From Parachlamydiales bacterium (GTDB taxonomy: Bacteria > Chlamydiota > Chlamydiia > Chlamydiales > JABDDJ01), in the NCBI GenBank assembly GCA_041671045.1, contig JBAZCF010000006.1, positions 19,290 to 83,289 on the forward strand: a stretch of DNA of 64,000 bases. The letters run 5' to 3'. Below, piece by piece: positions 19,235 to 20,959 of the stretch. A program made the position numbers and the translations under genes. Numbering within the stretch: position 1 is the first letter of the stretch; every line of letters starts with the position of its first letter. The notes beneath the pieces were generated by a model. That model saw nothing but the letters and a program-made list of their open reading frames with translations. It made no database searches and was not told the origin of the DNA.

Positions 19235-19771
19235 GCAGGGCTTTGCCCTGCACCCAGCAGGACTTCGTCCTGCACCTACCAAAGAACTGGCGTCCTTTGG
19301 AATCCGCAGACTGTGATCGCATCTTCGAAATCCATCTTACAGCACGTTTCGACACGAATCTCCGATTCGCGTCGCCGACGTTGACCTGCCCGCTTCGCGG
19401 TCACGTCAAGGACTATTGTCCAATCCATTCTACTCAGAAAAGTATCAGTATTCACTAATAGACTCAGGCAATTGTACTAAAAAATGTCCTGGCAGATTCT
19501 ATTTATTATTTTTTAGAATTTATCATTGGATGAGATTACAATTCATAATTAGTTTTGAATTGTAATCTAAAAGACAAATGGAATGTCGAATAATGTTTGA
19601 CGTGACCGCGTAGCGGGCAGGTCAACGTCGGCGACGCGAATCGGAGATTCGCGTCGAAACGTGTGATAAACACGCGTACAAGGCAGTGATAACAGCTCGC
19701 GGATTCCAAAGGACGCCAGTTCTTTGGTAGGTGCAGGACGAAGTCCTGCTGGGTGCAGGGCAAAGCCCTGC
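19235..19771. repeat. MITE-like long palindromic element, copy 2 (~537 bp)
   Basis: The outer 73 bp of the arms (19235-19307 and 19699-19771) are perfect reverse complements, checked base by base. An inner 66-bp block is 64/66 identical between arms. The core shares GTATTCACTAATAGACTCAGGC with copy 1. The element sits between the convergent trpS and glycosyltransferase genes. Confidence 0.9.
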
Positions 19772-19783
19772 TGCCTATGGCTG

Positions 19784-20959
19784 TCAGCCTTGAACTTGGC
19801 TGAGGAGTGTAGGGAGTTCTTTGATAAGGATTTGGGCGTTGTTGTCCCATGTGTGATTCTTTTGGATTATACTTTGGGCATTGTGAACGATGTTTTGGCG
19901 TTCTTTCTCGTTGGAGAGGAAATGTTTTATGTTGTCATTGAGTTCTTGCCATTGTCCGAATTGAGAGAGGACGATGCTTTTGTTGGGTTCGAAGATTTCG
20001 CGTAGGTAGGTGTTATCGTTGGTGATGACGAGAGCGCCGAGGTTTAGTCCGTAGAAGATCCTTTCGTGGGCGCCGTTTTTGAAGTGGGGGTTGCTGTTGA
20101 TGATGATTTTAGCTTGTTTCATGAGGTCTAGGGCTTTTGTGAAGTCAGCGGAGCTGTGAAGGGTAACGTTCTTTTTGCCGGAGAGGGTTGATTTCCAGTT
20201 GGAGCCTACACCGTCGCCGTAGATGTGTATTTGCACATCGTGGATATTGCGGATAGTTTCAATACGGTCTTTAGCACGGAGGTAGGATTCCAGGTCATCG
20301 AATATTTGAGGGTAGTCGAGGTGTTCGGGCTTTATAGGGGCGCCGTTGGCAAGTTGTTTATCTATGGAAGAGACGAAGGCTTGTACGTAGGTGGTATGGT
20401 TGTCATTCAAGGAGGCGTCGATAGCTTCTTGCATTGCTGCGCAGATAGCTGGGGGGTATTTTTTCTTCCAGGATTGGAGCAGGTCTTCGTATTCCATGCA
20501 GGTAGCGAGGACGAGGACATCGATGGGACGTTGTGCTTCGGCGGGGTGTTTTTCATCTCTGCCGACAGCATGAGGGAGGAAGAATGTTTTAGGGAAATTG
20601 ATGCCTTTGAAGAAGTCGCATCCGAAGCGGTCAGCGCAGGAGATGATGGTGTATTTGCTATTGATGAGGGGTAGGTAGCGATTGGGTGAGTCCACTAGGG
20701 CAGCGACGTGGGGGATTTTAATCATGTCGGAGAAGAAGTTGCCTTTTTCATCGGGCATGAGGCCATTGAAGGAGAAAGTGGCGTCGGGCTTTTCTTTGAA
20801 TAGCTCTTCAAGGAATGGTTTGGGGTTATTATATTTTGCTTCGAGGATATGGCATTCAACGCCATTGCGTTCAAGTGCAGAACCTAGCTGTTTTGTGAAG
20901 TGGTGTAAAACATTATATTGGCTATAGGGGGGCATGAATAGGGTGATTTTCTTGACCAT
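19784..20959 (-). CDS. CgeB-like / Glyco_trans_1_2-type glycosyltransferase family protein
   Basis: 391 aa. The C-terminal block KIIINSNPHFKNGAHERIFYGLNLGALVITNDNTYLREIF...HTWDNNAQ resembles the CgeB/DUF3880-type GT-B C-terminal domain. Confidence 0.5.
   Translation of the reverse strand: MVKKITLFMPPYSQYNVLHHFTKQLGSALERNGVECHILEAKYNNPKPFLEELFKEKPDATFSFNGLMPDEKGNFFSDMIKIPHVAALVDSPNRYLPLINSKYTIISCADRFGCDFFKGINFPKTFFLPHAVGRDEKHPAEAQRPIDVLVLATCMEYEDLLQSWKKKYPPAICAAMQEAIDASLNDNHTTYVQAFVSSIDKQLANGAPIKPEHLDYPQIFDDLESYLRAKDRIETIRNIHDVQIHIYGDGVGSNWKSTLSGKKNVTLHSSADFTKALDLMKQAKIIINSNPHFKNGAHERIFYGLNLGALVITNDNTYLREIFEPNKSIVLSQFGQWQELNDNIKHFLSNEKERQNIVHNAQSIIQKNHTWDNNAQILIKELPTLLSQVQG

Follow-up and report, generated by a model that had tools for sequence, protein, structure and literature searches.

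The window, that is the whole 64-kb stretch of DNA that was analysed, carries two copies, E1 and E2, of an inverted-repeat element of 537-540 bp. On balance we favour the view that E1 and E2 are non-coding, non-autonomous, dispersed mobile repeats resembling REPINs, BIMEs and MITEs that are recognised as folded single-stranded DNA, with a Y1/HUH transposase as the suspected enzyme. They represent a previously uncatalogued family of small hairpin-ended repeats, which is a familiar kind of genomic parasite and not a new type of gene. The hairpins are selected parts of the element and are preserved on one defined strand, 5'-GGATT-HB-YRGRGT-HA-3', where HA and HB are the two hairpin types described below; this strand reads outward in both arms. 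The window comes from an environmental bacterium of the phylum Chlamydiota, with genes for a CT_584-like protein and ThyX among other typical ones, and the named relatives of its proteins are chlamydial.

Organisation of element E2

Element E2 (19235-19771, no strand assigned) is 537 bp long and lies between trpS (18213-19208, plus strand) and a GT1 glycosyltransferase gene (19784-20959, minus strand). In brief, two inverted arms of 195 nt flank an AT-rich centre of 147 nt. A repeat finder placed the full inverted repeat at 19235-19429 and 19577-19771, with 86% complementarity, and a 31-mer from the arm had three matches in the window against none in 100 shuffles. The preliminary description of this DNA reported perfectly complementary termini of 73 bp, an inner block of 66 bp nearly identical between the arms, and a segment of about 36 nt in the middle of each arm that is unrelated. 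All three hold: 19235-19307 and 19699-19771 are exact reverse complements (73/73), the inner block at 19344-19409 is identical at 64 of 66 positions, and the segment at 19308-19343 agrees at 17 of 36. Compared segment by segment, the arms are identical in hairpin H1 (17/17), in H2 (17/17) and in H3 with its tail (29/29).

Each arm consists of consecutive stem-loops; its outer part is made up of a GC hairpin, ACYCYR, CCAAAGG..CCTTTGG and AATCC. The hairpins are GC-rich against a genome of 43% GC. In the left arm (features given on the plus strand), H1 (19235-19251, GCAGGGC-ttt-GCCCTGC) and H2 (19257-19273, GCAGGAC-ttc-GTCCTGC) have 7-bp stems and 3-nt loops, and ACCYA follows each. Together they span 19235-19273, with a mirror copy at 19733-19771; they are of the HA type and form a tandem 22-nt duplication found by TRF. 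H3, the HB type, has the anatomy CCAAAGGAC-tggc-GTCCTTTGG, followed by the tail AATCCGC. In the left arm of E2, H3 and tail occupy 19279-19307 (mirror copy 19699-19727), and the hairpin is CCAAAGAAC-tggc-GTCCTTTGG, with one A.C mismatch. H2 and H3 together make up a two-hairpin unit that is common to several phyla.

Further inward follows the variable segment (19308-19343), whose mirror at 19663-19698 folds a hairpin of its own, ACGTGTGATAAACACGCGT; the right arms of E1 and E2 each have a different small hairpin in this segment. The inner conserved block (19344-19409, mirror copy 19597-19662) comprises H4 and H5. H4 (19350-19374, CGACACGAATC-tcc-GATTCGCGTCG) has an 11-bp stem with an A.C at pair 5, the mirror H4 at 19632-19656 being perfect, and H5 (approximately 19379-19409) is an imperfect hairpin. 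The centre (19430-19576, plus strand) is AT-rich and non-palindromic, with a GC content of 0.21-0.38, and contains a local 16-nt inverted repeat at 19533-19568.

Comparison of E2 with E1

E1 (13406-13945, right end approximate, no strand assigned) is located between the YjbH gene (11185-13371, plus strand) and a GT2 glycosyltransferase gene (13937-14737, minus strand). Its left arm comprises H1 (13406-13422), H2 (13428-13444), H3 with tail (13450-13478) and H4 (13521-13545), and its centre extends from about 13601 to 13750. The right arm comprises H4' (13807-13829), the tail with H3' (13872-13900), H2' (13906-13922) and a degenerate H1' (13923-13945) that overlaps the last codons of the GT2 gene.

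E1 and E2 lie at unrelated loci in the same orientation and are about 80% identical from end to end, centre included. Their centres are co-oriented, and the 22-mer GTATTCACTAATAGACTCAGGC (19448-19469 in E2) is identical in both. By module, identity is 93-97% for H3 with its tail and 91-97% for H4-H5, compared with 42-69% for the variable segment and about 70% for the centre.

The two-hairpin unit in other genomes, phages and plasmids

Read on the inward strand, the unit consists of HA (a G-rich GC hairpin with a 3-nt loop), ACYCYR, HB (CCAAAGG and a variable inner stem) and AATCC. Scanning species-representative genomes with the 18-mer GCGTCCTTTGGAATCCGC gave mainly chance matches and some true units; a match in L093, within an ORF of 573 aa, was taken as chance. 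The unit is found in two Victivallaceae MAGs (L096 and L105) at non-orthologous loci that have only 62 nt in common. It also occurs, flanked by genes for a sigma-54 activator and a glycosyltransferase, in a Desulfovibrionaceae MAG and an 'Acidobacteriota' MAG (L087 and L104), which are about 90% identical and represent one lineage.

In viral contigs, the pattern CCAAAGG-N(6-16)-CCTTTGGAATCC was found at 19 loci. The full architecture is present at no fewer than 12 phage or viral loci, including the upstream hairpin and the linker, both of which are outside the search pattern. An assignment of the human-gut 'Bacteriophage sp.' matches to ssDNA microviruses was rejected, as these are fragments of phage scaffolds of about 59% GC with large ORFs. 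A covariance model of the unit retrieved further copies, with three co-oriented units each in L118 and L128, and, applied to 527 kb of unrelated metagenomic contigs, detected none. In L118 (2766-2820, 3100-3200 and 5179-5280) the repeat exceeds the unit: about 100 nt are common, with a third hairpin, CACGACAG..CCGTGTC, and the three copies have differing G-to-A changes in the first hairpin. One unit is carried by a Rep_1 rolling-circle contig. On this 4.7-kb contig (L119), which encodes a Rep_1 protein, the Bacillus-plasmid RNA motif RF01691 was detected at 4343-4527 (35.4 bits), approximately 80 nt from the unit.

A BLAST search of plasmids with the unit led to the 72.5-kb plasmid of the cultured Desulfobaculum bizertense SY-1, which carries at least four copies of an element of about 400 bp. 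This element ends in inward-facing units; its copies share 77-86% identity, lie in both orientations and are all intergenic. Units are found alone, in inverted pairs with spacers of any length, and at the ends of multi-copy elements. Inverted pairs, with variable inner hairpins, are present in the window (two), on the Desulfobaculum plasmid (at least four) and in L126, L111 and L123, where the spacers are about 13, 120 and 240 nt, respectively. The orientation of the units relative to neighbouring genes is mixed.

For the full E element, only the two copies in the window are known. Exact-pattern scans of GTDB representatives and JGI metagenomes with the inner H4-H5 block returned zero or chance matches only, and a BLAST search with E2 against plasmid and phage collections gave no match. 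Full-text literature searches for the motif strings of the unit and for chlamydial repeats or MITEs returned nothing specific.

Genomic setting and orthologous sites

Both window copies are located between convergent genes, E1 between YjbH and GT2 and E2 between trpS and GT1. E1 lies at a synteny breakpoint. The adjoining GT2 gene is an 82% ortholog of a gene of the closest relative, where it has the opposite orientation and is found next to trpS. On the contig of this relative (L001 8058-9915, corresponding to 13937-18078 of the window) the GT2 ortholog is encoded on the plus strand directly upstream of trpS. In the place of the relative's hemB/ALAD, the window has two low-GC ORFs without a Pfam hit, at 15017-16420 and 16435-18078.

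The trpS/GT1 junction was compared with that of four relatives. In a 67% relative (L003) the two genes overlap, so that there is no spacer and the element is absent, and in the 85% relative a spacer of about 179 nt lacks the element; this spacer was pieced together from two contigs with a 20-nt overlap (L001 end 11060-11079 and L115 end 11261-11280). The spacer of an approximately 68% relative (L109) is 134 bp long and consists of one perfect palindrome with 51-bp arms. A 76% relative (L111) has a 250-bp inverted-repeat element at the junction, with an unrelated centre and with ends of the same architecture, GC hairpin - ACCCCCG - CCAAAGGGGT..ACCCCTTTGG - AATCCGC. As the element is absent from the orthologous junction of the nearest relatives, the window element is an insertion relative to them; the absences could in principle also be deletions. 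The junction has been struck more than once by elements with the same type of ends. A composite transposon consisting of E1, the intervening genes and E2 is ruled out by the ancestral adjacency of trpS and GT1.

Contigs L001 and L115 stem from the same sample and both end within the trpS/GT1 spacer, and the break may indicate a polymorphic insertion there. The spacer of the 85% relative contains an H1-like hairpin, CCCAGGGC-ggagt-GCCCTGGG. Other long perfect intergenic palindromes were seen on related chlamydial contigs (L109 2809-2917 and 577-670; L003 1165-1259). One is the palindrome at trpS/GT1 (51-nt arms, 100%); others, adjacent to mutY, have arms of 36-42 nt made of tandem AAGGAC/AAAGGAC 9-mers, and the word AAGGAC also builds the H3 stem of the window element.

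Two further observations concern other parts of the window. Positions 1-3392, upstream of the NamZ gene, lack ORFs of at least 110 aa, and 1356-3392 lacks those of at least 80 aa; Rfam gave no hit here. These positions may represent either decayed genes or an extended non-coding segment. Six tandem copies of the 9-nt repeat TGGAATGGG at 6697-6751, where the GroEL gene has its 3' end, encode the usual Gly-Gly-Met C-terminal tail and are ordinary.

Covariation and strand bias

Across the four window arms, four base pairs change on both sides, a number that was reached by 3 of 500 shuffles with n = 4 sequences. The changes fall in H1, H2 and H4, with an A.C intermediate in H4; one of the four is doubtful (degenerate H1 of E1) and three are solid. 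Two of these stems had been pointed out in the preliminary description, and both readings are correct. H1 is GCAGGGC-ttt-GCCCTGC in E2 and GCAGGGT-ttc-ACCCTGC in E1, and the H4 pair is A:T in the left arm of E1, G:C in the right arms of E1 and E2, and A/C in the left arm of E2. Taken on its own, the covariation in the window is statistically thin and suggestive.

The inner pairs of HB, in 14 to 24 units from other organisms, occur in up to four Watson-Crick forms. In 14 units from eight sources, one inner pair is GC in six and AU in five, and another is CG in seven, AU in three, GC in three and UA in one. Overall, 93% of the cells in these units are paired; sliding the partner column lowers the figure to 31-58%. 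It should be noted that the outer seven pairs of HB were fixed by the search pattern and are therefore uninformative on covariation.

Strand specificity, which had been raised as a way to recognise the transcribed strand, was addressed with 49 hairpins comprising 412 pairs. Sixteen pairs are non-Watson-Crick, and all of them are transition mismatches. On the strand that reads HA-linker-HB-AATCC there are 15 A.C and one G.T (binomial p = 5e-4; p = 1e-3 after merging one variant that is probably shared). Consequently, the hairpins stay paired, wobble allowed, on the complementary strand, which is the outward strand in both window arms. All four window arms also have the more stable fold on the outward strand. 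The covariance model would prefer G.U on its own strand, so ascertainment opposes the observed bias. The bias could stem from some mutational asymmetry and not from selection; deamination linked to transcription or to the lagging strand would be expected to bias sense-oriented units in the opposite way.

The preliminary description had argued for selection on local secondary structure rather than decay of a dead transposon. Paired changes, covariation and strand bias support the first part, whereas the opposition of structure to transposon is not supported, the element being an insertion-like dispersed repeat.

Coding content, RNA signals and transposase genes

No reading frame within E1 and E2 is conserved between the copies, and a comparison of an arm translation with a protein database, made to catch spuriously called ORFs, gave no candidates. 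Rfam 15 models, applied with gathering and E-value thresholds to the window and 19 related loci, revealed no relevant family, and a tRNA/tmRNA scan found none. In promoter and terminator scans neither copy exceeded shuffle expectation, no terminator-like site was found in E2, and no U-tract follows the hairpins. With these scans at chance level, a small RNA gene in the centre is unsupported. RNA had been put forward as one form that the structure might take; no RNA-level function is indicated by an Rfam match, a U-tract terminator or a conserved promoter.

No direct repeat that could represent a target-site duplication flanks E1, E2 or four of the Desulfobaculum copies, the exact ends being somewhat uncertain. 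The 64-kb window encodes no transposase of any family and no Y1_Tnp gene, no transposase is annotated on the Desulfobaculum plasmid, and none adjoins a unit at the loci examined. Two Y1_Tnp sequences came up in the search. One is a fragment of 57 aa located 1 kb from the unit in L105. The other (L107 3958-4890, minus strand), from a Desulfacinum MAG, encodes an IS200-like Y1_Tnp protein of 310 aa, and its frame contains the unit 18-mer GCGGATTCCAAAGGACGC (GRIPKDA), with a similar GTGGATTCCAGGGG 27 nt upstream. There is no hairpin at this site, and the 18-mer was therefore treated as a probable coincidence; it may also reflect a distant connection of the unit with Y1 transposase genes. Viral contigs were scanned for proteins related to the L107 Y1 protein, and none was detected. 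A resemblance to the nick region of conjugative oriT (CACCTA/ATCC) was dropped as too short.

Proposed mechanism and alternative explanations

The mixed orientation of the units, the missing U-tract and promoter signals and the varied arrangements of the units point to a DNA-level element that acts through folded single-stranded ends. We propose that the outward strand folds as single-stranded DNA and that an enzyme acting in trans would recognise the folded strand and copy or move the element into intergenic DNA. Most plausibly this enzyme would be a Y1 (HUH) transposase, by analogy with REP/RAYT and IS200/IS605 systems and given the two weak observations in L105 and L107. Copies would persist between convergent genes since insertions there presumably do least harm. 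The window covers 64 kb of the host genome, and it is in this setting that we infer copy number, exact ends, mobility and enzyme.

It is possible, although we think it rather unlikely, that the two-hairpin unit is a distinct and undescribed strand-specific signal of single-stranded nucleic acid, served by a dedicated enzyme (a new HUH-type transposase or a primase) or acting as an antisense RNA module, the E elements being one of its carriers. The unit is carried by Chlamydiota, Lentisphaerota, Desulfobacterota, phages and a rolling-circle replicon.

An RNA-level function for the host appears improbable to us. Here the chains of hairpins in 3' UTRs would serve as factor-independent terminators or as barriers to 3' exonucleases, and the element would have spread through its usefulness. 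Such a role would fit the location between convergent genes of both window copies, the L111 element, the unit in L087 and L104 and two of the four plasmid copies. It would also fit GC-rich hairpins in a genome of 43% GC, as well as phage contig L128, with three units in sense orientation behind genes, in one case 35 nt past a capsid gene. Yet there is no U-tract, the terminator scan did not exceed expectation and Rfam gave no match. The destabilising A.C mismatches fall on the strand of the flanking mRNA, wobble pairing being compatible only with the other strand. Moreover, units are antisense to their neighbours in L122, L118 and L096, and close relatives have the same gene pair without the element.

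Equally improbable, in our judgement, is an ordinary decaying MITE with incidental hairpins, in which the paired changes arose by template switching or gene conversion in palindromes or between the arms. Quasi-palindrome-templated correction is an established mutational mechanism, and homogenisation has left a trace here. Over 73 nt the arms of E2 do not differ, and they share a derived G-to-A change that creates the mismatch in H3 and has no counterpart in E1, so that the arms of one element have been homogenised. The thin covariation in the window, with four sequences, would also agree with decay. Templated correction is, however, symmetric between the strands and does not predict 15 mismatches against one. 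Between the same two copies, conservation differs strongly by module (91-97% against 42-69%), and the two-hairpin architecture is kept, with different stems, over several phyla and phage contigs.

Finally, single-strand initiation or origin-like signals, with units as priming sites like sso or ssi and an inverted pair as the relic of a plasmid or phage origin, are very improbable: strand-specific folding, the unit on the 4.7-kb Rep_1 rolling-circle contig beside the Rfam Bacillus-plasmid motif, and a likeness to ssiA/ssiB of RSF1010 oriV, where inverted hairpin sites likewise surround an AT-rich centre, speak for them, but one 72-kb plasmid has at least 4-5 copies, the chromosome has two copies 5.8 kb apart, copies do not adjoin replication genes and phage units are scattered through structural-gene modules.

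Significance

Small mobile DNA has hardly been explored in environmental chlamydiae, and the mobile repeats that we favour here mark both a break in synteny and a hot spot of insertion among polysaccharide genes. Distant phyla, phage contigs and a plasmid share the unit in nearly identical form; Rfam lacks it, and it has clear covariation and a 15:1 strand bias. Should a dedicated enzyme exist, the unit would offer a tractable new case of hairpin-guided transposition of single-stranded DNA and a handle on horizontal traffic among intracellular chlamydiae, gut anaerobes and their phages. If there is no such enzyme, it is one more REP/MITE family.

Comparison with known systems

Bacterial MITEs with structured inverted ends include the Correia elements of Neisseria, the RPE of Rickettsia and Nezha, which have target-site duplications and ends derived from DDE insertion sequences. 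Like these, E1 and E2 are non-coding, a few hundred bp in size, bounded by terminal inverted repeats, intergenic and multi-copy (two copies in the window), and they can fold into long hairpins. They differ in their arms of 195 nt, which consist of five to six separate stem-loops. Given that neither a target-site duplication nor a parent insertion sequence was found, they do not qualify as classical MITEs. Nor are they PATEs of IS200/IS605, which have different, non-inverted left and right subterminal hairpins on one strand and lack terminal inverted repeats, because the ends here are truly inverted. Strand-specific hairpin recognition related to that of IS200/IS605 is still conceivable.

The REP, BIME and REPIN elements of E. 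coli and Pseudomonas are mobilised by RAYT (Y1 HUH) transposases (Di Nocera et al. 2013, PMC3733652; Bertels and Rainey 2011 cited therein). They are imperfect palindromes of 20-40 nt, with a cognate RAYT (Y1_Tnp) gene flanked by the repeats and tens to hundreds of copies in a genome. The resemblance extends to short GC-rich hairpins with an unpaired conserved tag, to one relevant strand, to an extragenic location often at the 3' ends of genes, and to the lack of a target-site duplication, which IS200/IS605 systems do not leave either. In the elements studied here, stems of 7-11 bp enclose loops of 3-4 nt, and every instance is intergenic. The arrangements also agree: single units, inverted dimers with variable spacers as in REPINs, 'heterodimers' with different stems, and mosaics with other stem-loops as in BIMEs. 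There are differences, too. Our unit has two hairpins where a REP has one, and no RAYT gene was found. The CCAAAGG/CCTTTGG outer stem is conserved between phyla and in phage contigs, whereas a REP family is usually confined to one lineage, and the window elements, at 537-540 bp, are far larger than REPINs. The tag is YRGRGT/AATCC, with the consensus YRGRGT occurring as TAGGT, TGGGT, CGGGGT and CGGAGT, instead of GTAG or CGTC. This excludes strict membership in the GTAG/CGTC REP super-families, although GTAG does occur on the outward strand in the window (GGTAGGT-GCAGGAC).

The 'TIR repeats' and TIRtrons have long or double-palindromic terminal inverted repeats that flank genes for TIRYT tyrosine transposases (PMC3733652). 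Their shared motif GGGGWSAS does not fit the linker of our unit (PMC3733652), and none of the loci examined has a TIRYT gene between its termini or close to them. The TIR repeats are like our elements in that their inverted termini consist of two palindromes and that they form moderately abundant families, found as dimers or clusters. These double-palindromic TIR repeats with TIRYT genes are the nearest published description of elements like E1 and E2 (PMC3733652).
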